Positions 8,107 through 64,000 of a stretch of DNA of 64,000 nt are shown one piece after another. The position numbers were made by a program, and so were the translations under genes. Location: assembly GCA_049968435.1 (NCBI GenBank), contig JBMFQU010000001.1, positions 609 through 64,608 on the forward strand, read 5' to 3'. The first letter of the stretch is position 1; each line of letters begins with the position of its first letter. The notes under the pieces were generated by a model. The model had not been told where the DNA came from, did not search any database, and saw only the letters and a program-made list of their open reading frames with translations. The DNA comes from Brevinematia bacterium (GTDB lineage Bacteria; Spirochaetota; Brevinematia; DTOW01).

Positions 8107-9120
8107 CTAAAAGTGTTGCCAACCTTTAAAAAAGTTTTTTTTGATTTTTTTATTATTACTATAGATTTCAATTTGACTTCCTTCTGTTATTTGCCCTATC
8201 TCTGTTATCTTTAGTTTTAATTCCTTAGATATTTTTTGTATCTCATCTTTTCTATCGTTTGGTACTGTAAAAATTAGTTCATAATCTTCGCCACCTGTAA
8301 GAGCGTATTTTAGCCTATTTAAATAATTATCTTTACCTTTTTTTAAAAATTCTTCTACTAAATGGTTATATCCAGGACTTATTGGAATATTTTCTAATTT
8401 TATTTTCGCACCGACTTTAGAGCTTTTCAATATGTGGTTGAGGTCTTGTAATAATCCATCGCTTATATCAATACAAGAGGTTGCTATATTTACTATTCTT
8501 TTACCTAACTCAATTCTAGGTGTGGGGTTTAAGTGCCTTCTTATAAGGTATTTTCTAAATTTAATTAATTCTTCACTTTCTTTGTGTTCTTCTCTTTTCT
8601 CCATTATTAGCTTTAGTCCTAAAGCAGAATCTCCCAATGTGCCACTTACGAAAATTAAATTGCCCGGTTTTGCTCCCTTTCTTGTTAAAACTTTGTCATT
8701 AGATATACCAATCAAAGTTATTGTGATTGATAGGGTATTGCCTTTTGATAGGTTACCTCCTCCTATATATACATCGTATTTAGAGAAAGTTCTAGTTAGT
8801 CCCTTATAAAGTTCAGTTACCCAGTTCTCTTTAGTTTTGGTTGGTAAGATAAGAGAAATTATAGCGAATTTTGGTATACCTCCCATTGCGGCTATGTCGC
8901 TTAAGTTTGCTGATGCTGATTTTATTCCTAGATCGTAAGGAGGAAATAATTCTTTTTTAAAATGTACACCATCTACCAAGGAATCTGTTGTTATAAGTAT
9001 GCTTTGATTTTCTTTGAATACAAAACAATCGTCTCCGTTAGGTACCAAAACATTTCCAGGAACATTTTTTTCTGTTATATTTTTTATTACCTCTATGAGT
9101 TCAAATTCTTCTAATTTCAC
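8107..9120 (-). CDS. thiL: Thiamine-monophosphate kinase
   Basis: AIR-synthase-related fold with 'DDCFVF' and 'TTDSLVDGVHF' motifs. Confidence 0.75.
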   Translation of the reverse strand: MKLEEFELIEVIKNITEKNVPGNVLVPNGDDCFVFKENQSILITTDSLVDGVHFKKELFPPYDLGIKSASANLSDIAAMGGIPKFAIISLILPTKTKENWVTELYKGLTRTFSKYDVYIGGGNLSKGNTLSITITLIGISNDKVLTRKGAKPGNLIFVSGTLGDSALGLKLIMEKREEHKESEELIKFRKYLIRRHLNPTPRIELGKRIVNIATSCIDISDGLLQDLNHILKSSKVGAKIKLENIPISPGYNHLVEEFLKKGKDNYLNRLKYALTGGEDYELIFTVPNDRKDEIQKISKELKLKITEIGQITEGSQIEIYSNNKKIKKNFFKGWQHF

Positions 9121-9123
9121 TTT

Positions 9124-9891
9124 TTATTCTTGTTTTTCAAAGTAATTTTTTAAAGATCCTATACCTTCTATTTCAATTATTATTTCGTCTCCATTTTTCA
9201 TTTCTCCTATGCCGGGTGGAGTACCTGTTGCTATTACATCTCCTGGTAGCAAAGTCATTATTTTTGATACAAAGCTTACTATTTCTTCAACTCCGAATAT
9301 CATATTTGAAGTTGTTGAATTTTGTTTGATTTCTCCGTTTAGGTATGCTCTTATTTTTAAATTTCTCCAATCTAAATCAGTTTCAATCCATGGCCCTATA
9401 GGACAGAATGTATCAAATGATTTTGCTCTAGTCCATTGCCCATCCTTATTTTGGAAGTATCTTTCAGTTACATCATTTAAACATGTAAAACCTAAAATAT
9501 AGTCTTTTGCTTCTTCGGGGGAGATGTTTTTACATTTTTTTGATATAACTACTGCTAATTCTGCTTCATAGTCAACTCTTTGGCAAAATTTAGGAGCTGT
9601 TATTGTTTCCTCTGGTCCTATTACAGAAGTGGTAGGTTTTAGAAAAAGTATAGGTTCCTCTGGTATTGGCATTTTAAGTTCTTCTGCATGATCTCGGTAG
9701 TTTAAACCAACACATACAACCTTTGAAGGGATTGTTGGTACTAAAATGTTTATTTCTTCAATTTTAAAACTCTTCTCTTCTAATTCAAAATCAGAAAATA
9801 TACTTCCTTTTATAGGAATAGTAATTTTCTCTTCTTCATCAAAAACACCTTGATAAATTTTACCTTCATGTTCAAATCTTCCTAGCTTCAT
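9124..9891 (-). CDS. Fumarylacetoacetate hydrolase (FAH) family protein. The probable start is MKLGRF.
   Basis: 'GLNYRDHAEE' and 'GDVIATGTPPGIG' FAH signatures. Confidence 0.7.
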   Translation of the reverse strand: MKLGRFEHEGKIYQGVFDEEEKITIPIKGSIFSDFELEEKSFKIEEINILVPTIPSKVVCVGLNYRDHAEELKMPIPEEPILFLKPTTSVIGPEETITAPKFCQRVDYEAELAVVISKKCKNISPEEAKDYILGFTCLNDVTERYFQNKDGQWTRAKSFDTFCPIGPWIETDLDWRNLKIRAYLNGEIKQNSTTSNMIFGVEEIVSFVSKIMTLLPGDVIATGTPPGIGEMKNGDEIIIEIEGIGSLKNYFEKQE

Positions 9892-10278
9892 AGTAGTATA
9901 AATGTAAAAGTATTTGCTTGTTCTTTTCAAATAGATTGAATTTATTTTGTAAAAATCTTTCTAAATTTATTAAGAATTGAGGCTTTATATTTTCTTACTT
10001 CTATGAAATACTAATAGTATGTGGAATTTTTACAAATCATGGTGTGAATACTAAAATAAATTTCTAAAAATTTCTAAACTTTGTTAGAAATAGAGAACTT
10101 TTTCTTACCAATTTAACAATTTACAGAAAGAGGTTAAGGTGAAGCTTTCTTAAATTACTTACTTAATGGAAGCAGTGAAGGCGAAGCTTACTTTGGAATG
10201 ATTAAGGAGGTATTACTAGGAAGCGAAGCCTTCTGTTGCACTAAAGGGCTTATGGGGAACAAAAAGAAGCTTATAAAA

Positions 10279-10372
10279 TTTCTTAACTTCTATTAGGAGG
10301 TAAATTTTTTATATTCTCTTACTTTTAGTAGGACCTAATATGAATTTAGAATTTTCCTAACAAATTAGAGGT
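10279..10372 (+). repeat. Second copy of the about 95-bp intergenic repeat module (see 3866-3962).
   Basis: By-eye alignment; about 80% identity. Confidence 0.6.
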
Positions 10373-10382
10373 AGGTATTACT

Positions 10383-10401
10383 AGGAGGACGAAGTCTTCC
10401 T
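10383..10401 (+). repeat. REP-like hairpin 'aggaggacgaagtcttcct'. A sister copy 'aggaagcgaagccttct' lies at 10218-10234.
   Basis: Imperfect inverted repeat with a GAA loop. The same stem recurs as a terminator at 46779-46800. Confidence 0.55.
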
Positions 10402-10558
10402 GTAGAACTCAGGGGAGGTTTCTAAAATTCTTAACTTCTATTAGAAGAGTTGAATCTTTGGTTTTAGTAGAAAGAAGAAGTTGAAGATAAGAATATTATT
10501 TACTTGGATAATTTGAAAAATAGTATTATTATAATTTACATTAAATTAGGGGGAGATC

Positions 10559-11008: not shown

Positions 11009-11126
11009 TTTTAATAAATTAGGTTAATTAAGTATTAATAGAAGTTTTAGAGGTTTTTTGAAAAATTTGAAATAGTTTTGATAGTAATATTATAATAATC
11101 TTTAAGTATTGAAGGTGGAGGATAGT

Positions 11127-11960
11127 ATGTCTGATGTTGTTCAGGAAAGTCAGATGGAGATACAACCTTTCTCTTCTGAGAAGGTTAATATTAATATTCT
11201 TTTAGAAGCTGGGGCTCACTTTGGGCATCAAAAGAGTAAATGGAATCCTAAAATGAAGGAGTATATTTTTGCTTCTAAAGGTAATGTTCATATAATTAAT
11301 CTTCAGAAGACTTTAGAAAAATTAAAGGAAGCTTATGAGTTTGCTAAAGAAATGGCTAAACAAGGTGCTAGGTTTTTGTTTGTTGGTACTAGAAAGCAAG
11401 CTCAGGATATCATAAAGCAAGAAGCTCTTGCTTGTGGTCAGTTCTATATAAATACTAAATGGATTCCAGGTACTTTGACTAATTTCCCTTCTATAAGAAG
11501 ATCTATTCAAAATTTGATGAGGATAGAAAAGATGGAAGCTGACGGTTCTATAAATCAACTTCCGAAAAGTGAAATAAATAAGGTAATGAAGTTAAAGAAG
11601 AAACTTTTGGAGAAGTTAGAGGGTATTAAAGAGATGAAGACGCTTCCAGATGTTCTTTACATTGTAGATATCACTAAAGAGGAAATTGCTGTTAAGGAAG
11701 CTAGGAAGATGGGGATTCCTATTATTGCTATTGTTGATACTAATGCTGATCCTACATTAGTTGATTATCCAATTCCGGCGAATGACGATGCAGTTAGATC
11801 AATACAAATCATTACTGAGGTTATAAAGAGTGCGATATTAGAGGGCGAAAATTATGCAGTTAAGAAAGAAATAGAAGAGATATCTGAAGAGGAAAAACCA
11901 GATTTAAGTGTTCCAGAAGATATTTCTGATAAACTAGAGAGTATGGAAGATAGAGATTAA
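11127..11960 (+). CDS. rpsB: 30S ribosomal protein S2
   Basis: 'LLEAGAHFGHQKSKWNPKM' S2 signature. A GGAGG lies 7 nt upstream of the ATG at 11127. Confidence 0.85.
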   Translation: MSDVVQESQMEIQPFSSEKVNINILLEAGAHFGHQKSKWNPKMKEYIFASKGNVHIINLQKTLEKLKEAYEFAKEMAKQGARFLFVGTRKQAQDIIKQEALACGQFYINTKWIPGTLTNFPSIRRSIQNLMRIEKMEADGSINQLPKSEINKVMKLKKKLLEKLEGIKEMKTLPDVLYIVDITKEEIAVKEARKMGIPIIAIVDTNADPTLVDYPIPANDDAVRSIQIITEVIKSAILEGENYAVKKEIEEISEEEKPDLSVPEDISDKLESMEDRD

Positions 11961-11962
11961 AT

Positions 11963-12685
11963 ATGGTTATTTCTTATGAGTATAAGAATGTAAAGATTGG
12001 ATTGGATATTCCTAACTTTAATGATCCAAAATCGGTTGATGAGTTTGATTTAGTAAACTTTTCTATCTCATCCGTTCTTCATCCTAATCTTGCAAATAGT
12101 GATTTTAATGTTTTTTTACCTAATCAAGTTCATGGTGATGATATTATAGTTTTAAAGCAAAATAAGATTCATTACAAATCTCAAATTTTTGACTTTGATT
12201 ATTCTTTATCTAGGACTTTGGAAGCAGATGCTATTGTTAGTTTTGATAAGGAAGTTATAATTGGAGTTAGGACTGCCGACTGTGCACCCATTCTTTTTAG
12301 TGATGGTATTTTGACCGGTGTTATTCATGCTGGATGGAGGGGGCTTAAGGCTGGGATAATTCAGAAGACTATTAACTTTATAAAGGATGAAGTTGGTTTT
12401 GATTCAAGTTCTTTTGTGTTTTTTATCTTACCATGTATTCATGTTTGCTGCTATGAGGTGGGAAAAGAATTTTTAGAGTGGGGAGAGAAATTTTGCCATA
12501 TTAAGGGAGATAAGATTTTTTTTGATATACCTAAGTTCGTATTTTCTACTTTATCTAATTTAGGTGTGGTTGAAGATAATATTTTCTATTCGCCTCTTTG
12601 CACAAGTTGTTATTCTAATGTTTTACCTTCATATAGGGCTAGTAAAACCGAGGAAAGAATGGTTTCATTTATTTCTTTGACTTAA
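11963..12685 (+). CDS. pgeF: YfiH/PgeF-family (DUF152) purine-nucleoside phosphorylase / laccase-domain protein
   Basis: 'RTADCAPIL' and 'HAGWRG' conserved Cys/His motifs. Confidence 0.7.
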   Translation: MVISYEYKNVKIGLDIPNFNDPKSVDEFDLVNFSISSVLHPNLANSDFNVFLPNQVHGDDIIVLKQNKIHYKSQIFDFDYSLSRTLEADAIVSFDKEVIIGVRTADCAPILFSDGILTGVIHAGWRGLKAGIIQKTINFIKDEVGFDSSSFVFFILPCIHVCCYEVGKEFLEWGEKFCHIKGDKIFFDIPKFVFSTLSNLGVVEDNIFYSPLCTSCYSNVLPSYRASKTEERMVSFISLT

Positions 12686-13068: not shown

Positions 13069-14319
13069 ATGGCAGAAGAAATATCATTCAGAGTAGTAAA
13101 GTATAAACCCAATACTTACATAGTAATAGAAGGAGATAGGATACCTGAGGAATTTTACATAATTCAGTCAGGGAAAGTACAAGTTTTTGAAACAATAGAT
13201 CCCATAATAAAGGGTACAAAGGAAGGGACAACTCTACAAAAAGGAGACTTTTTTGGAGTAGTATCTTGTATGAGTAGAAGAAACAATATGGAAACAGTTA
13301 TAGCATTAGAAGAAACTTCATTATTAGCAGTAAAGAGATCTCAGTTTGGGGATCTAATCCAAAAGAGCGCACCAATAGCTGTAAAGATACTTAGGTTTTT
13401 TAGTAAAAAACTCAGAGAATACGATTCTACTTTAACGAAACTCACTTTTAAGTCAAAATCAGAGGAAGATCCATACCAGCTATTTAACATAGCAGAGTTC
13501 TATTACTCAAAAAAGATGTTTGAACAAGCAGCATATGCTTATAGAAAGTACATAGAGTATTGTCCAGATGGTGGATATATTCCAAGTGCAAAAATGAAGT
13601 TAGCATCAATTGATCCAATGATCGCATTAGCAGAACCAGAAGTGATAGAGTCTAAATCAATAGAAAGGTACCATGATAACCAAGTTATATTCTGCGAACA
13701 CGAATACGGTGAAAAAGCTTATGTAATACTAAAAGGTAATGTCAGAATAACAAAATTTGTAAACGGAAATGAAGTATTATTAGCTGTTTTGAAAGAAGGA
13801 GATGTATTTGGAGAGATGGCAATCCTTGAAAATAGACCAAGAAGTGCAACAGCAACGGCAGTCGGAGAAACAGAATTACTTTACATCAAAAAGGAAAACT
13901 TTGAAATGATGGTACACACCAATCCAGATATAGCAACAAAAATTATAGAGCTACTAAGTGATAGGATTTGGACAATATATCGTCAGTTAGCAAATATAGT
14001 ATTGAAAGATCCAACAGCAAGAATATATGACGCAATAATGATACAGATAGAAAAAAATAGAATACCCATAAAACCTAAAGAATCATTTACGCTTAATTTC
14101 ACTGTAGAAGACTTAATAAAATTTTTAGGTTATCCAATGGATGAAGGCAAAAAATACTTAAAACAAGTACTTGATACCGATAAAAATATAACAATATCAC
14201 AAAACAACAAAATAGTAATAAATGATTTAGAAAAACTAGTAAAGGATGTTACATTCTATAAGAAAAAACTACTCTTAGATCTAAAAATTCAAATGAGTAG
14301 ATCACAGACGAACAGGTAA
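13069..14319 (+). CDS. Crp-like regulator with two cyclic-nucleotide-binding domains, a TPR-like middle segment and a probable C-terminal wHTH.
   Basis: Two cNMP-binding beta-roll motifs ('GDFFGVVSCM..RR', 'GDVFGEMAILENRPRSATA') and a C-terminal helix-turn-helix-like 'FTVEDLIKFLGY..KKYLKQ'. Confidence 0.6.
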   Translation: MAEEISFRVVKYKPNTYIVIEGDRIPEEFYIIQSGKVQVFETIDPIIKGTKEGTTLQKGDFFGVVSCMSRRNNMETVIALEETSLLAVKRSQFGDLIQKSAPIAVKILRFFSKKLREYDSTLTKLTFKSKSEEDPYQLFNIAEFYYSKKMFEQAAYAYRKYIEYCPDGGYIPSAKMKLASIDPMIALAEPEVIESKSIERYHDNQVIFCEHEYGEKAYVILKGNVRITKFVNGNEVLLAVLKEGDVFGEMAILENRPRSATATAVGETELLYIKKENFEMMVHTNPDIATKIIELLSDRIWTIYRQLANIVLKDPTARIYDAIMIQIEKNRIPIKPKESFTLNFTVEDLIKFLGYPMDEGKKYLKQVLDTDKNITISQNNKIVINDLEKLVKDVTFYKKKLLLDLKIQMSRSQTNR

Positions 14320-14321
14320 AT

Positions 14322-16262
14322 CTACTTTAAACTTTTTTTCCTAACTTCATAAACATTCGTACCTGCCTTTGATTTTACAGTAACTGTAAAGTTCTTTTTT
14401 ATGTAATCTTCTATTATTTTTCTTTTACTAATATTCCACATGTTATCACCCTGCCTAATTACCACATAACTACCATCAAGGAGCTTTAATTTATTACCTG
14501 GATAAACCCAATCTGGATCTTCCCACTTTTTAGGTTTTCTGTAAGTAAGGGGCTTATAACCATTTATAACTGCTACTTTATTAACATACACCCATATATC
14601 GTAATCAGTAATAGTTATACCCAATGTCTTCTGAACTTCTGTAAGCTCAGGTTCGTATATGTTATCAAGGTTTGAAATTATTTGACTAACTCTTCTCTCT
14701 TCTTGAGTAAGAGAAATCCCAAAAAAATTATAAATACTCTCTCTAAATAATAACCCTACACCTCCAACTAAAAGCAATAAAACTAAAACTCCTAACACCC
14801 ACCAATATCTAAATCTAAAAAACCCATCAGTATAACTTCTTCTTTCAGAAGAAATTTTCTTTCTTTTTTCTTCTGTCACAACCTTATGTTTTTCCTCGAC
14901 TGAGGAAACCTCAGAAACAAAATCACCTTCACTAACCTTTCTTTTAGCAATCTCTTGAATTTCTTCTCCTTTTTCAGTTCCTTCTAATCTTTCACTCTTA
15001 ACAAGTAAATTAATTTTATCAGTATAAGCTAGAGAGTAAACAAATTCATAAGCATCTATAAGCTCCTCAAGTCTTTTTCTATCGTTAGCTACCCGCCTAT
15101 TATCTTTCTCGAATTCTTTCTCTATATCAGATACAAAAATCCTTTTATCAGTTATCTTTCTCATATTTTCTCTTACATTCAAGAACTCTTTGTCAAAATC
15201 ACCTTCAACGGGATCCATAAAAATAATATCAGAGTAAAAACCAGTAAATTTTTGCTTATTGAAATTTTCTAAAACAACATACTCCTTATCATAAAGCTCT
15301 AATTTATTTTTAACTTCTCCATCTCCCAAAATAAGATTTTTATCTCTACCGTCCCTATCTTTAAGTGGAATATAATACTTTCCTTCCTCTAAAACAATAT
15401 TTACATTATTTATGATATTTATCCTATCGCTCACATCAACAAACTTGATACCAACATTAAACTGTTTGAAATCTTCAAAGACAGATCTATTGGTAAAAAC
15501 TTTTAAACTACTCCTATCAAAAATTAATCTAATCCCATCTATAAGGGAAATAACATCATTACCTATAACTTCTCTTACTTTTGCAAGAGGTACAAAATTT
15601 TTCAAAAAAGATCTTTCATCAAATTGATCAGTTATGACAAATATTTCTCCATTCTTAGTCTTTATAACATAACTACCTGAAATTCTTAATATAGAGTTAT
15701 TGGGCAAAAGATCATAAAACTTTAAAGAGAACAAATATACTATCTTAGAAGTCGTCAAATCATTGTTTATAGTACTAAACATATCAAATATCTTTTTACC
15801 ACTAAATGTAATGGCAAAATTAGCATTATCGTATAAAAGTACATAGCTCTTATACTTCTCACTTATTTCAGATAAAACTTTGTTAAGTTCCTTCTCTTCA
15901 CCTGATTTATCAATCACTTTAACGTTAACCTTATGATGAAACTCCTTCTTTAGAAATTTAAGAATTACATTATAAACACTACTAGGCACAATAAAATTAG
16001 TATCAAATTCATCAGTTTCAATTTGTTTTATTTCATCCTTCAATGAAGAAAGATAACCAGCACTTACAACCACATTGGATATATGTTTTTTTATTTTTTC
16101 GATATAAGTCGAATAACCCACCCTTATAAATGGTCTCTCATCAAGAGGAGAAAAACCTGTAAAAACAACATAACAATCTCTATCTACTTTAAAAACTCTT
16201 TTATTAGGTTCGTCATTATACATCCTTATGAGAGAAATAAACTTTCTAACTTTTTCTTCCAT
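14322..16262 (-). CDS. Hypothetical 646-aa protein with a large cytoplasmic N-terminal domain, a single TM helix and a C-terminal extracytoplasmic LysM-like domain.
   Basis: TM helix 'WWVLGVLVLLLLVGGVGLLF'. The C-terminal 'DPDWVYPGNKLKL' resembles the end of a LysM fold. The N-terminal domain is unrecognised. Confidence 0.4.
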   Translation of the reverse strand: MEEKVRKFISLIRMYNDEPNKRVFKVDRDCYVVFTGFSPLDERPFIRVGYSTYIEKIKKHISNVVVSAGYLSSLKDEIKQIETDEFDTNFIVPSSVYNVILKFLKKEFHHKVNVKVIDKSGEEKELNKVLSEISEKYKSYVLLYDNANFAITFSGKKIFDMFSTINNDLTTSKIVYLFSLKFYDLLPNNSILRISGSYVIKTKNGEIFVITDQFDERSFLKNFVPLAKVREVIGNDVISLIDGIRLIFDRSSLKVFTNRSVFEDFKQFNVGIKFVDVSDRINIINNVNIVLEEGKYYIPLKDRDGRDKNLILGDGEVKNKLELYDKEYVVLENFNKQKFTGFYSDIIFMDPVEGDFDKEFLNVRENMRKITDKRIFVSDIEKEFEKDNRRVANDRKRLEELIDAYEFVYSLAYTDKINLLVKSERLEGTEKGEEIQEIAKRKVSEGDFVSEVSSVEEKHKVVTEEKRKKISSERRSYTDGFFRFRYWWVLGVLVLLLLVGGVGLLFRESIYNFFGISLTQEERRVSQIISNLDNIYEPELTEVQKTLGITITDYDIWVYVNKVAVINGYKPLTYRKPKKWEDPDWVYPGNKLKLLDGSYVVIRQGDNMWNISKRKIIEDYIKKNFTVTVKSKAGTNVYEVRKKSLK

Positions 16263-16704
16263 ATTCTACCCCCTTCAAAAGTTCCAAAAACTTTCTAATT
16301 CTTCTTTCAGAGATAATCACAACTTCTCCACTTTTCAATGTAATCTCTAAACAAGGTTTTTTATCAACAACAAACATAATAATATTATGATCTTTAAGAA
16401 CTCCATAAGAAAAGTCTTTTAATTCTGTTTCTTTAATTTGAACAATATCATCAATGCCAAAATAGAAATAAAAAAATCCCATTCTAATACCAACCTTATT
16501 ACCATCAACGCTAACGTAGAAGGTAGAGAGGTAAAAGGTATAAAAAGATACTAAAACAACAAAAAAGATTAGAATCAAAGAAGGATGAACCTCTTCAAGA
16601 AAAACATTTCCTATAGAAGTTTGATAAATAAGAAAGAATACTAAAATAAAATCTAATAAAATAAGAGGTAAATTCCTTATTAAAATAAACCTAGTATATT
16701 TCAT
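16246..16704 (-). CDS. Membrane protein with a bacterial PH (bPH_2/YdbT-like) domain
   Basis: Two N-terminal TM helices followed by about 80 aa with a PH-like beta-sandwich pattern. Overlaps both neighbours. Confidence 0.45.
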   Translation of the reverse strand: MKYTRFILIRNLPLILLDFILVFFLIYQTSIGNVFLEEVHPSLILIFFVVLVSFYTFYLSTFYVSVDGNKVGIRMGFFYFYFGIDDIVQIKETELKDFSYGVLKDHNIIMFVVDKKPCLEITLKSGEVVIISERRIRKFLELLKGVEYGRKS

Positions 16705-17540
16705 AAACTTCCTCTATACAATACTTCAACAATTTTGCATGTTTGTTTACCTTCTTTAACATCATGGACTCTTATAATAGAAGCACCATTCATAAGAGCA
16801 ACTGTATTTAGAGCTATAGTTCCTGTTAATCTCTCTTCAATAGGTACATTAAGAATACCCCCTACAATAGATTTTCTAGATAAACCAACCAATATAGGTT
16901 TTTTAAGTTGTTTAAGTTCGGCAAGTCTTCGTATTATAGAAATGTTATGTTCAAGCTTTTTACCAAAACCTATTCCAGGATCAATAATTATTTTGCTAGG
17001 ATCAACACCGAAGCTTTCAAATTTTTCTATTCTTTCTCTTAAAAACTCAGTTATTTCTCTAACAACATCTTTATACTCAGGGTTATCTTGCATACTCTTA
17101 GGAGTACCCTTTATATGCATAAGTATAATTGGAACATTATAATCTCTTATAACCCTTATCATATCTTGATCAAAAGTACCAGCAGAAATGTCATTCACAA
17201 TATCAGCACCATTTTCTATTGCTTGTTTCGCAACTTGTGATTTATAGGTATCAACCGAAATAGGTATATTTGGGAAATTTTTTCTTATTTCTCTAATTGC
17301 CGGAATAACTCTCCTTAATTCTTCTTCTAAATTTACTGGATCAGAACCAGGTCTTGTAGATTCGCCTCCTATATCAATTATATCAACTTCATCTTGAATC
17401 ATCTTACTAACAACATTAATTAGATCATCAAGTTTAACCCTGCTACCTTCAAAGAAAGAATCAGGTGTAACATTAATAATACCCATACAGTACTTATGAG
17501 ATGAGAAATCAAATTCTTTACCCCTAATAACTAAACTCAT
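16701..17540 (-). CDS. folP: Dihydropteroate synthase
   Basis: 'GIINVTPDSFFEG' and 'IDIGGESTRPGS' pterin-binding signatures. Confidence 0.85.
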   Translation of the reverse strand: MSLVIRGKEFDFSSHKYCMGIINVTPDSFFEGSRVKLDDLINVVSKMIQDEVDIIDIGGESTRPGSDPVNLEEELRRVIPAIREIRKNFPNIPISVDTYKSQVAKQAIENGADIVNDISAGTFDQDMIRVIRDYNVPIILMHIKGTPKSMQDNPEYKDVVREITEFLRERIEKFESFGVDPSKIIIDPGIGFGKKLEHNISIIRRLAELKQLKKPILVGLSRKSIVGGILNVPIEERLTGTIALNTVALMNGASIIRVHDVKEGKQTCKIVEVLYRGSL

Positions 17541-17748
17541 CTTACCTCCTCGGTTCTAAAATTATAGTTTATTAAGAAGTAAAGTTGAAAATCTTTTTAA
17601 AATCGAATTTTCTAAATATTAAAACTCTACTAAAAACAATACCTTAAACTTGTTAGAAATATCAAAAATAACCATTTCTAATAAGTTTTAGAAAGGAAAA
17701 GCAAAAACAATTAGATAAACAACTAATATTTTTCTTAAAATATTTACG

Positions 17749-18618
17749 ATGAAAATATTACTTATAGGTGCTTATGGCCAATTAGGTACAGAGTTTAGAA
17801 GATTTTTCGAAGAACATAATATTGATTATATACCAACAAGTACTAAAGAAAGAGAAGGGAAAAATTTAGTTTTAGATATCGCTAATATAAACAAAGTAAA
17901 AGAAGTATTTTCTAAATACAAATTTGATGTTGTTATAAATTGCTCAGCTTATAACTATGTAGATAAAGCTGAAGAAGAATGGCAAAAAGCTTATTCAATA
18001 AATGGTCTTGGAGTAAGGAATTTAGCAATAGAGTCAAATAAGAAGAGCATCCCTTTGGTACATTATTCTACAGATTATGTTTTTGACGGAAGTAAAACAA
18101 CACCTTTCACTATAGCTGATATACCAAATCCTCTGTCAAAATATGGTAAAAGTAAATTGTTAGGAGAGAATTTTTTAAAATCACTTACAAATAAATACAT
18201 ACTCATAAGAGTAAGCTGGGTTTTTGGTAAAGGAGGGGAGACGAATTTCATAAAAAAACTAATAGAATGGTCTAAAAAAGGTGAAGTTAGAGTTTCAACA
18301 GACGAAATTTCAGCACCTACCTATACAAAAACAATTGTCAATGCAACTTGGAAACTTCTAGAAGTAGAAGGGTTTGGAATCTATCATCTTTCAAACGAGG
18401 GAGAGTGTAGCAGATATGAATACGCTAAGTTTATACTAGAAACATTAAACTGGAAAGGAAAGCTTTACGAAGCAAAGCAAGAAGACTTTAACTTACCGGC
18501 AAGAAGACCCAAATACTCAAAGTTAGATAACTTTGGCATGAAAGAAACTATAAAAATTGAAATACCTCATTGGAAAGAAGTTGTAGGAAAATATATGAAG
18601 GAGGAACTAAATTTATGA
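17749..18618 (+). CDS. rfbD: dTDP-4-dehydrorhamnose reductase
   Basis: 'MKILLIGAYGQLG' Rossmann motif and RmlD-like length. ATGA overlap with rfbB. Confidence 0.8.
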   Translation: MKILLIGAYGQLGTEFRRFFEEHNIDYIPTSTKEREGKNLVLDIANINKVKEVFSKYKFDVVINCSAYNYVDKAEEEWQKAYSINGLGVRNLAIESNKKSIPLVHYSTDYVFDGSKTTPFTIADIPNPLSKYGKSKLLGENFLKSLTNKYILIRVSWVFGKGGETNFIKKLIEWSKKGEVRVSTDEISAPTYTKTIVNATWKLLEVEGFGIYHLSNEGECSRYEYAKFILETLNWKGKLYEAKQEDFNLPARRPKYSKLDNFGMKETIKIEIPHWKEVVGKYMKEELNL

Positions 18619-51919: not shown

Positions 51920-52038
51920 GCCTGGCGAGTACCTACTTTCCCACCTCGTTGCCAAGGCAGTATCATCGGCGGTACGGGGCTTAACTTCCGGGTTCGGAAT
52001 GGAAACCGGGTGTTTCCCCCGCCCTATGCTCACCAGGC
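51920..52038 (-). rRNA. rrf: 5S rRNA
   Basis: The reverse complement gives the canonical 5S ends and about 119 nt. The segment is GC-rich relative to the flanks. Confidence 0.85.
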
Positions 52039-52089
52039 AAAAAAACATCCATCTGACGATGGATGATGTTTATTAATTTATATTGATGG

Positions 52090-55075
<2,986 letters not shown>

Positions 55076-55131
55076 ACCTTCGCTATGAAAACCATATTAT
55101 GTCTAGAGCAAATTAAGCCTTATAGCTCAAG

Positions 55132-55203
55132 TGGAGGTGAGGGGAATTGAACCCCTGACCTTCTCGGTGCAAGCGAGACGCTCTCCCTCTGAGCTACACC
55201 CCC
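55132..55203 (-). tRNA. tRNA-Ala (TGC) in the 16S-23S spacer
   Basis: Acceptor stem with the G3:U70 identity pair, anticodon loop CTTGCAC, and an encoded CCA. Confidence 0.9.
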
Positions 55204-55220
55204 ACATTAAATAATTAATG

Positions 55221-55294
<74 letters not shown>

Positions 55295-55358
55295 AAAAAG
55301 AAACCTAAAATAAAGACTTAGGAAGATATTTATCTGCCGGACGGGCAAAAGATCACCT

Positions 55359-56858
<1,500 letters not shown>

Positions 56859-57425
56859 TTATAGAGAGTTTATAACTCAAAAATAATTTCTGCACACAAG
56901 ACCCGCCGGCAGATACATATCTTCCTATGTTATAGAGCAACAAAACACCAACAAATTACGTTGGTAACTACTATTATAAAAAAACAATTACATAGTTGCA
57001 AATTAATTTCACTTCTTCAAGAAGAAGTGAAAACCTTCAATATAAAATAGAGCAAAAACCCTTAACTTTCAAAAGGCGAATATAATTATATACAAAATTT
57101 TTCCAATTGTCAAATTCAATAAAAATATCTAAATTCCCAAATCTAAAATTTTTAATCTAAATAATAATTTTCACATACCTTCACTAGAAGGTAGAAATTT
57201 ATTATCTTAATTGAACTAGAAATTTCTTAAGAAAATTCTTCTTGTTTCCCACCCCTCTTTTGATACCTCCCTTTAGTCATCTAAATTAGCCTACATTTCT
57301 TTAAGAAAGTTATTTGCTATTCCTGATAGAAGTTAAGAATTTTAGAAACTTCTTTTTGTTTCTCACCCAACCCGCCCTTAAGCATTTGCAGGAGAGCTAA
57401 CGCCCTCCTACCTAGTAATACCTCC

Positions 57426-63582: not shown

Positions 63583-64000
63583 TCAAAATCCTTTTTTCCT
63601 GTATTCAGAATGGGGACCTATGTTAAGTTCTCTAAAACTTTCTTCAACAAGGCTTTCTCTACCTATCAAGCTTTTTTCTACTATCATACCCTCAACTTTA
63701 GCTCTTTCTTCAACGATAGATTCCCTAATTATTGAAAATTTTACAGAAGCTCCCTCGTGGATAGAAACATAAGGACCAATTACAGAATCCTCAATAAAAG
63801 CATTTGGATTTATGTAAACAGGTGGGATGATAACAGAATTCTTTATATTTATACCATGATGAATTTCATTATGAAACTTTTTGAGTAACTTAGAATTAGC
63901 GTCAATAAGTTTTTCCTTACTTCCACAATCATATACCTCATCAGCAGAAAAAATTCCTATCCTCTCTCCTCTCCTTATCATCTCCATCATCGCATCAGTT
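63583..64000 (-). CDS. C-terminal part of a sugar-phosphate nucleotidyltransferase (left-handed beta-helix hexapeptide region). The gene continues beyond the window.
   Basis: Hexapeptide repeats '[LIV]G..' such as 'IEDSVIGPYVSIHEGASV'. The ORF is truncated by the window edge. Confidence 0.45.
   Translation of the reverse strand, partial: TDAMMEMIRRGERIGIFSADEVYDCGSKEKLIDANSKLLKKFHNEIHHGINIKNSVIIPPVYINPNAFIEDSVIGPYVSIHEGASVKFSIIRESIVEERAKVEGMIVEKSLIGRESLVEESFRELNIGPHSEYRKKGF

Follow-up and report, generated by a model that had tools for sequence, protein, structure and literature searches.

A Spirochaetota-restricted family of predicted bitopic membrane proteins with an undescribed cytoplasmic domain and a divergent LysM tail

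Spirochaetes maintain their peptidoglycan close to the inner membrane and possess periplasmic flagella, and many of them contain CfpA filaments that lie beneath the cytoplasmic membrane. A 64-kb stretch of Brevinematia (Spirochaetota) DNA (hereafter the window; approximately 29% GC outside its ribosomal RNA (rRNA) operon) carries on its minus strand a tightly packed string of three genes, encoding dihydropteroate synthase (folP), a 152-amino-acid (aa) membrane protein and a 646-aa membrane protein, which meets a convergent gene for a 416-aa Crp-like protein. A preliminary description of this DNA had proposed that the string links folate synthesis to an envelope module, and that the 646-aa protein forms a transmembrane link between the cytoplasm and peptidoglycan. 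The locus raises the question of what the 646-aa protein does, and whether its genetic company bears on that function. Here, we describe a computational analysis of the protein, its relatives and their gene neighbourhoods. The 646-aa protein is the Brevinematia member of an uncharacterised family that is found only in Spirochaetota and possesses one conserved architecture. We read it as a putative LysM-anchored bitopic scaffold, a known kind of protein, whose cytoplasmic domain has not been described before and whose family is confined to one phylum.

The gene for the 646-aa protein (14322-16262, minus strand, as for all features of this protein) encodes a predicted type-II bitopic protein of the inner membrane. 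The sole segment in which 19-residue hydropathy exceeds 2 comprises residues 487-509 (14736-14804), and the N-terminus possesses neither such a segment nor a signal peptide. An AlphaFold2 (AF2) model built from 20 homologues, with a predicted local distance difference test score (pLDDT) of 76.5 and a predicted template modelling score (pTM) of 0.64, places the transmembrane (TM) helix at residues 487-505. Because lysine and arginine are more numerous on its N-terminal flank than on its C-terminal flank (four versus two), the positive-inside rule predicts an N-in/C-out topology in which the first ~486 residues would be cytoplasmic and the last ~137 periplasmic. The predicted cytoplasmic part begins with an alpha/beta domain (residues ~20-345; 15228-16205), modelled with a fold like that of metallo-beta-lactamases (MBL) and lacking a conserved metal motif; its N-terminal core (residues 18-170; 15753-16211) is matched in all distant relatives. 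There follows a helical region (residues 356-444; 14931-15197) that is modelled as four helices (356-371, 378-409, 413-423 and 430-444) at pLDDT values of up to 96 and carries a DRxRLxxL motif (D394, R395, R397 and L398) that is kept in distant relatives. A K/E-rich linker (residues 445-486; 14805-14930) leads to the membrane; it is poorly conserved and predicted to be disordered, with pLDDT below 50 at residues 446-485, and 46% of residues 431-486 are charged. Beyond the membrane lie a divergent LysM unit (residues 548-597; 14472-14621; ITITDYDIWVYVNKVAVINGY...DPDWVYPGNKLKL) and a second, partial LysM unit with a Brevinematia-specific beta-hairpin tail (14325-14468), the partial unit being marked by the pattern V-x-x-GDxxW-x-I within residues 599-624. 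The preliminary description, in which a charged linker and one TM helix connect a large domain in the cytoplasm to a LysM-type tail, is correct as to this anatomy.

The LysM-like nature of the tail holds at the level of the family profile (2e-7) and not for the window sequence by itself. The 646-aa sequence alone has no match to Pfam LysM and scores 17.5 bits against the SafA LysM model, for which the cutoff is 67.85. A profile of the C-terminal region of 20 diverse members (A4), compared with the PDB, matches LytE (2e-7), SafA (2.2e-7), a LysM protein (3.3e-6) and TsaP (4.5e-6), and Pfam LysM (PF01476) is matched by 17/20 and 43/58 family members, with a best E-value of 4.6e-6 among the 58. 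The first unit reads ITIT, DYDIWVYVNKVAVINGY and then ...DPDWVYPGNKLKL, which fits the beta-alpha-alpha-beta fold of LysM (~45 residues) and its motifs G-[DN]-[ST]-[LI]-x-x-[IL]-[AS] and N...I-x-x-G-Q-x-L-x-[IV]-P; in the model it comprises a helix at residues 553-566 and a strand at 591-593, the second helix being replaced by a loop. The second unit, VVIRQGDNMWNISKRKI, aligns with the first strand and helix of the LytE and SafA LysM domains (profile positions 62-80), and the AF2 model of the tail places a helix at residues 608-624 and strands at 625-632 and 635-642. By homology transfer, we accept the tail as one complete, divergent LysM domain and the first half of a second, and a LysM module of this kind would be expected to bind peptidoglycan in the periplasm.

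Close homologues of the 646-aa protein number 26; all are full-length, all belong to Brevinematia, and their identities range from 43 to 100%. When 1.84 billion cluster representatives were searched exhaustively with a profile of the N-terminal 432 residues only, 148 clusters (50% identity) matched at E <= 1e-3. Matches outside the Brevinematia cluster cover mainly residues 18-170 and are located at the N-termini of the matched proteins themselves. Nearly every full-length match (600-1070 aa) possesses one TM helix at about three quarters of its length and, C-terminally, the motifs NGY...[DN]P.W[IV][YF]P and GDxxW; the C-terminus had not been part of the query. A genome scan revealed 84 loci, essentially all of them in metagenome-assembled genomes (MAGs) labelled Brevinematia, Spirochaetaceae, Alkalispirochaeta, Spirochaeta, Leptospirales or Spirochaetota; the titles of 80 genome loci are all of Spirochaetota type, save a few that read "uncultured bacterium". 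Database entries call these proteins "hypothetical"; the sole other name, "LysM peptidoglycan-binding domain-containing", is given to C-terminal fragments, and a further protein search with a broad alignment of the N-terminal domain returned short unnamed fragments, with no named or cultured-species member. We know of no published study of the family, and neither Pfam nor NCBIfam has a model that covers its cytoplasmic domain; the N-terminal signature RxFxxDxxC...PFxRxG offers a basis on which a family model can be built.

This signature forms part of a longer motif in the N-terminal core, R-x-F-x-x-D-x-x-C-[YF]-[IV]-[IV]-[FY]-x-G ... P-F-[IVL]-R-[IVLM]-G ... Y-x-x-x-N. Twelve residues are invariant in an alignment of 13 broad sequences (A3): R22, F24, D27, C30, G36, P44, F45, R47, G49, E77, Y144 and N148. 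When 58 sequences are aligned (A7), R22, C30, G36, F45, R47, G49 and E77 are still invariant and the remaining A3 positions are at least 90% conserved. No histidine is found among the family-wide invariant or near-invariant residues of the domain. Brevinematia members carry in addition a near-invariant H-H-K-V-N...I-D motif (H109, H110, K111, N113 and D118; residues 109-113 are encoded at window 15924-15938) that is missing elsewhere in the family and might be a metal or ligand site peculiar to this lineage; the HH pair at 109-110 is specific to Brevinematia, and its context is not HxHxDH.

What kind of domain this is can be approached from both sequence and structure. The statement in the preliminary description that the N-terminal domain matches nothing is true at the sequence level: searches of the 646-aa protein against Pfam, NCBIfam, PADLOC and PDB sequences gave no match, and family profiles added nothing except LysM. 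Foldseek lists the MBL fold for the model of the domain, weakly (best E 2e-3) and with partial structural overlap. Lactamase_B-type Pfam models are matched by none of the 58 members and not by the window protein at E <= 0.1, comparison of the family profiles with the PDB found no MBL sequence, and neither the HxHxDH motif of MBL proteins nor their downstream His and Asp/Cys metal ligands are conserved in the family. The domain as modelled therefore resembles the MBL fold, and we do not file it as a member of the MBL superfamily. That superfamily includes inactive scaffolds (Integrator subunit 9 and CPSF100-type proteins); unlike these, the domain studied here shows no similarity to hidden Markov models (HMMs) of the superfamily, lacks HxHxDH and the metal ligands, and overlaps the fold only in part, and its RxFxxDxxC...PFxRxG signature, in a protein fused to a TM helix and LysM, is unlike any MBL motif. 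With a weak MBL resemblance, no catalytic motif and no sequence model, the domain still falls into no well-known family of ordinary function, and it is more likely to be a binding module than a hydrolase. In the short-form members P0033 (637 aa), P0032, P0054 and P0061, a core of ~170 residues is joined straight to the DRxRL helix and the TM helix lies at about residue 275. Because these members do without the latter half of the MBL-like sandwich predicted by the model, that half would be dispensable, and the N-terminal core may fold independently as a half-domain or act as a dimer.

The genetic company of the 646-aa gene is not conserved. In a synteny survey of 88 loci encoding a family member, the folP, 152-aa and 416-aa proteins were compared by BLAST with all open reading frames (ORFs). 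The order folP/152-aa gene/646-aa gene is kept in a single locus of the 88 (L005, that of the closest relative, P0002, at 79% identity), with a 4-nucleotide (nt) overlap and a 3-nt gap; it is missing from 10 other Brevinematia loci and from 77 loci of other spirochaetes. The Crp-like gene adjoins the family gene in none of the 88 loci, that of the closest relative included. The proposed coupling of folate synthesis to the envelope is thus unsupported, as the order survives in one locus of 88 and the Crp-like gene in none; the 152-aa protein, moreover, is confined to a narrow lineage, and the regulator does not form part of a module. The folP and Crp adjacencies are a chance or very recent lineage-specific juxtaposition and not a functional folate-envelope module. 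The apparent operon represents no new biological pairing, and we regard that part of the question as closed.

Elsewhere in Brevinematia the family gene stands alone and convergent with apbE (five loci), follows an NTP-transferase gene (three loci) or, in the most divergent locus, is isolated. Its 3' end nearly always meets a convergent gene, with 0-3 nt between the two stops (window 14317-14324; L001, L006, L007 and L011), which leaves no room for terminators on either strand; the convergent gene is apbE in the five loci, the Crp-like gene in the window and, at 12 nt, a Metallophos gene in L005. The NTP-transferase/hexapeptide neighbour was considered as a possible partner and rejected: it occurs in some Brevinematales and some Spirochaetales loci, in two versions that have nothing but the hexapeptide repeat in common, and the window copy lies 47 kb away from the family gene. 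The end of the window (63586-63999, minus strand) falls inside this copy, a homologue (70% identity over 141 aa) of the gene that adjoins the family gene upstream in L002, L009 and L010; its separation here illustrates how gene order has been shuffled in the class. Several other neighbours recur in the wider family (a GH57 branching enzyme, NhaP, MutS, GlnA-III, a BNR protein and a FecR/PQQ propeller); all have housekeeping roles or are specific to a lineage, and they carry no functional signal. In a Brevinematales sub-branch at ~53% identity, a same-strand gene for a DUF4398 and LysM protein (443-462 aa) follows the family gene (L002:9971-11909; L009:7989-9317), and in L002 a gene for an extracytoplasmic function (ECF) sigma factor comes next.

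A different neighbour emerged when all genes flanking the family gene were clustered across the 88 loci. In 27 loci of Spirochaetales type, each from a different species, the family gene is followed on its own strand by cfpA (in 26 of the 61 loci whose downstream sequence extends for 1.5 kb or more), at gaps of 67-231 nt; the CfpA proteins (~660 aa) were identified with the NF040882 equivalog model (1124 bits, cutoff 500). The linked family proteins belong to a branch of 800-900 aa from Spirochaetaceae-type MAGs. Their median identity is 31%, that of their CfpA proteins ~70%, and the adjacency, kept among family proteins this dissimilar, has therefore survived a long divergence. A divergent gene for a MinD/ParA-like ATPase lies upstream of the family gene in 20 loci, such that the locus reads MinD/ParA-like ATPase (divergent), family gene, cfpA, a gene for a 311-aa protein and a PPDK-like gene (for example L012, with cfpA at 8507-10480, and L014, L022 and L041). 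A scan of metagenomes with an AT-biased cfpA pattern added four contigs of 30-32% GC, which could not be assigned to Brevinematia. The 311-aa protein has no match in Pfam or NCBIfam; its gene comes after cfpA in 24 of the 27 loci and also on the AT-rich contigs L089-L092, and the protein looks like a conserved unnamed partner of CfpA.

To our knowledge, the membrane anchors of CfpA filaments have never been identified. Tomography by Izard et al. in 2004 (cited in PMC3398590 and PMC13398306) reportedly revealed "bridging and anchoring components" of the filaments. The filaments run just under the cytoplasmic membrane (PMC13398306), and cfpA mutants exhibit division and chromosome defects (PMC3398590). 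TP0749 of Treponema pallidum, which lies next to cfpA (TP0748), was considered as a possible family member and discarded; it is a miniprotein of ~70 aa (PMC9200625).

What, then, does the 646-aa protein do? We give somewhat better than even chances to a peptidoglycan-anchored transmembrane scaffold whose N-terminal domain docks a cytoplasmic partner, the local gene string being a recent accident. Binding of LysM to peptidoglycan in the periplasm would fix the protein in place, the MBL-like domain, without a metal site, would serve as a pseudo-enzyme that docks a partner, and the docked cytoplasmic structure would in this way be held against the membrane and the wall. Both the non-catalytic docking role of the N-terminal domain and the scaffold or tether function of the whole are what we infer from the family, and, of the functions considered for the protein, the proposed transmembrane connection from cytoplasm to peptidoglycan is still the one we favour. 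For the Spirochaetales branch, the most specific candidate partner, a speculative one, would be the CfpA filament ribbon.

Several points weigh against this interpretation. It is built entirely on sequence comparison and models, and the window protein taken alone reaches no LysM threshold. The sandwich may not be the conserved unit, since short members such as P0033 lack its second half, and the invariant Asp, Cys, Arg and Glu residues could form a catalytic site in place of a docking surface. With regard to the suggested partner, tblastn with CfpA found nothing in the window or in eight Brevinematia loci (within 8 kb of the family gene), the ~1000-aa "Leptospirales" branch lacks the adjacency to cfpA, and on the four AT-rich cfpA contigs a vWA-domain gene occupies the position upstream of cfpA in place of the family gene.

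A more specific proposal is that the family constitutes the membrane anchor of the spirochaete cytoplasmic filament ribbon, in which the N-terminal domain or the DRxRL helix would hold CfpA (or, in lineages that lack cfpA, an equivalent structure beneath the membrane) and LysM would pin the assembly to peptidoglycan. A bitopic protein predicted to bind peptidoglycan through its ectodomain would suit such an anchor well, and a candidate whose gene stands beside cfpA in 27 species is concrete and testable; if the proposal is true, the position of the ribbon would be fixed relative to the wall and the periplasmic flagella. We consider it rather unlikely. We think it quite unlikely that the N-terminal domain is instead an active enzyme, a divergent MBL-fold or other hydrolase without a di-metal centre that would use Asp27, Cys30, Arg and Glu77 on a cytoplasmic substrate while LysM merely localised it. 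Its fold does resemble that of MBL hydrolases, and a compact polar set (R22, D27, C30, R47, E77, Y144 and N148) is near-invariant throughout the family; however, no MBL His/Asp metal ligand is conserved, Lactamase_B is matched by 0/58 members, the structural similarity is partial, short-form members dispense with half of the domain, and the gene neighbourhood contains no metabolic signal.

The bitopic layout, a ligand-binding type of ectodomain and a conserved juxtamembrane helix would also suit a transmembrane sensor, in which LysM would detect the state of peptidoglycan or muropeptides and a signal would pass through the TM segment and the DRxRL helix, as in LysM receptor or PASTA kinases; the second LysM protein and the ECF sigma factor encoded after the family gene in some Brevinematales agree with such a role. 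The cytoplasmic part, however, contains no recognised kinase, cyclase, helix-turn-helix (HTH) or anti-sigma output domain, a disordered charged linker of ~40 residues would be a poor conduit for a signal, and the ECF neighbour is present in 2-3 loci only, so that we regard a sensor as decidedly improbable. Least credible of all, and in our estimate very close to discarded, is a functional module of folP, the 152-aa bacterial PH-type (bPH) protein and the LysM protein that would couple folate synthesis to the envelope, perhaps under Crp control. Overlaps of 4 and 17 nt and the ribosome-binding sites imply co-expression of the three genes in the window, and their order is kept in the closest relative; that order is found in this one relative only (79% identity) and there without the Crp-like gene, the 152-aa protein does not extend beyond a narrow lineage, and the synteny survey has already largely refuted the module.

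The preferred scaffold reading places the family beside known tethers of the envelope. DamX and FtsN, which carry SPOR domains, and RodZ share its type-II layout and act as positional tethers. MapZ/LocZ (PMC4931243), likewise a positional tether, has the same orientation as the 646-aa protein: a cytoplasmic N-terminal domain, a linker, one TM helix and a wall-binding C-terminal ectodomain. The domains of these type-II tethers are unrelated to those of the family on both sides of the membrane (a SPOR or MapZ ectodomain versus LysM; an HTH or FtsZ-binding region versus an MBL-like fold), and our analysis produced no link of the family to FtsZ or MreB. HubP, FimV and TsaP, landmark and scaffold proteins of proteobacteria, also combine a single TM helix and a periplasmic LysM anchor with an extensive cytoplasmic part, in places acidic or disordered, to which partners are recruited, ParA/MinD-like ATPases among them (PMC12918733). 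The LysM domain of TsaP is among the PDB matches of the family profile, and the family gene adjoins a MinD/ParA-like gene in the 20 loci described above. In HubP and FimV, the periplasmic LysM is N-terminal, opposite to the order in the family (cytoplasmic N-terminal domain, TM helix, C-terminal LysM); furthermore, the family has no FimV C-terminal or TPR match and no similarity to these proteins outside LysM, and it possesses a folded MBL-like module where they have an acidic repeat region. With the CfpA system of Treponema and Spirochaeta the family is connected by its place directly upstream of cfpA, on the same strand, in the 27 species; on the side of the differences, no cfpA is found in the window or near the Brevinematia homologues, and the adjacency is missing from other branches and from the four AT-rich cfpA contigs.

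In the window itself, the three-gene string comprises, in order, folP (16701-17540, minus strand; 279 aa), the 152-aa gene (16246-16704, minus strand) and the 646-aa gene, and it converges on the 416-aa gene (13069-14319, plus strand), a neighbour outside the string. The 152-aa gene begins before folP ends, the two sharing ATGA, a 4-nt overlap read directly from the DNA, and GAGGAGG lies upstream of the folP ATG. The ATG of the 646-aa gene is located 17 nt ahead of the stop of the 152-aa gene and is preceded, 7 nt upstream, by AAGGGGG, and the stops of the 646-aa and 416-aa genes are separated by 2 nt. The four ORF coordinates, both overlaps and the 2-nt gap previously reported are exact in the ORF table and the sequence. 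The tight packing of the string is confirmed and, judged by the overlaps and ribosome-binding sites, its three genes probably share a transcript in this genome and are coupled in translation. We presume a promoter within the 208-nt region between folP and a divergent rfbD-like gene (17541-17748), because this is the sole non-coding space upstream of the string. One sigma-70-like match is present there (17665-17636); such matches are not enriched over shuffled sequences, and a promoter scan was uninformative in this AT-rich DNA, with 12 promoter-like sites observed versus 21 expected. No terminators were detected in 13900-17800.

The remaining genes of the locus could be characterised to different degrees. 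The folP product has the features of a bona fide, ordinary dihydropteroate synthase, as earlier assigned: its sequence matches the equivalog model TIGR01496 over its full length (332.2 bits, cutoff 162.6) and Pfam Pterin_bind at 1.2e-87. The 152-aa protein contains two TM helices (residues ~12-32 and ~41-60), and its AF2 model, a poor one (pLDDT 54.8), shows these helices together with seven strands and a helix at the C-terminus. A cytoplasmic beta-sandwich like that of pleckstrin homology (PH) domains, with a C-terminal helix, following the TM helices is plausible at the level of the modelled fold. The proposal of a bPH protein thus stands with respect to the two TM helices and, in a low-confidence model, the PH-like fold; it does not stand with respect to the sequence, which gave no Pfam hit at all and no match to a bPH model at E <= 1. 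These features, together with the restriction of its known homologues to three among 5.8 billion proteins, all from the same narrow lineage, set it apart from bPH_2 proteins of the YdbS/YdbT type.

For the 416-aa protein, the description as a Crp-like regulator with two cyclic-nucleotide (cNMP)-binding domains and a C-terminal HTH is fair as regards the former, which match Pfam cNMP_binding in two stretches (1e-40, 138 bits) on either side of a sub-threshold, TPR-like spacer. The HTH was not recognised independently: Pfam HTH_Crp has no match, and weak alignments to FixK (3e-8) and FnrL (2.7e-7) that extend to residues 388-393 both fall far below their cutoffs. A winged helix at the C-terminus is probable. 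The same protein matches PADLOC models of Pycsar/TIR effectors (1.4e-17 to 3.7e-9), and these matches are confined to its second cNMP-binding domain (~191-300). A reading of the locus as a defence system was rejected, as its sole PADLOC matches are to this shared domain.

Two further features of the window deserve mention. At 11109-12685 (plus strand), an rpsB-like ORF (283 aa, TTG start) has as its next neighbour, 2 nt further on, an ORF of 240 aa in place of the usual tsf, the identities being assigned from the translations only. A complete rRNA operon (16S, two tRNAs, 23S and 5S) occupies 51920-56862 (minus strand) and has a GC content of ~53%, compared with ~29% for the genome. A difference of this size between rRNA and genome is typical of thermophiles, in agreement with the names of the MAGs of the closest relatives, which are of hot-spring style.

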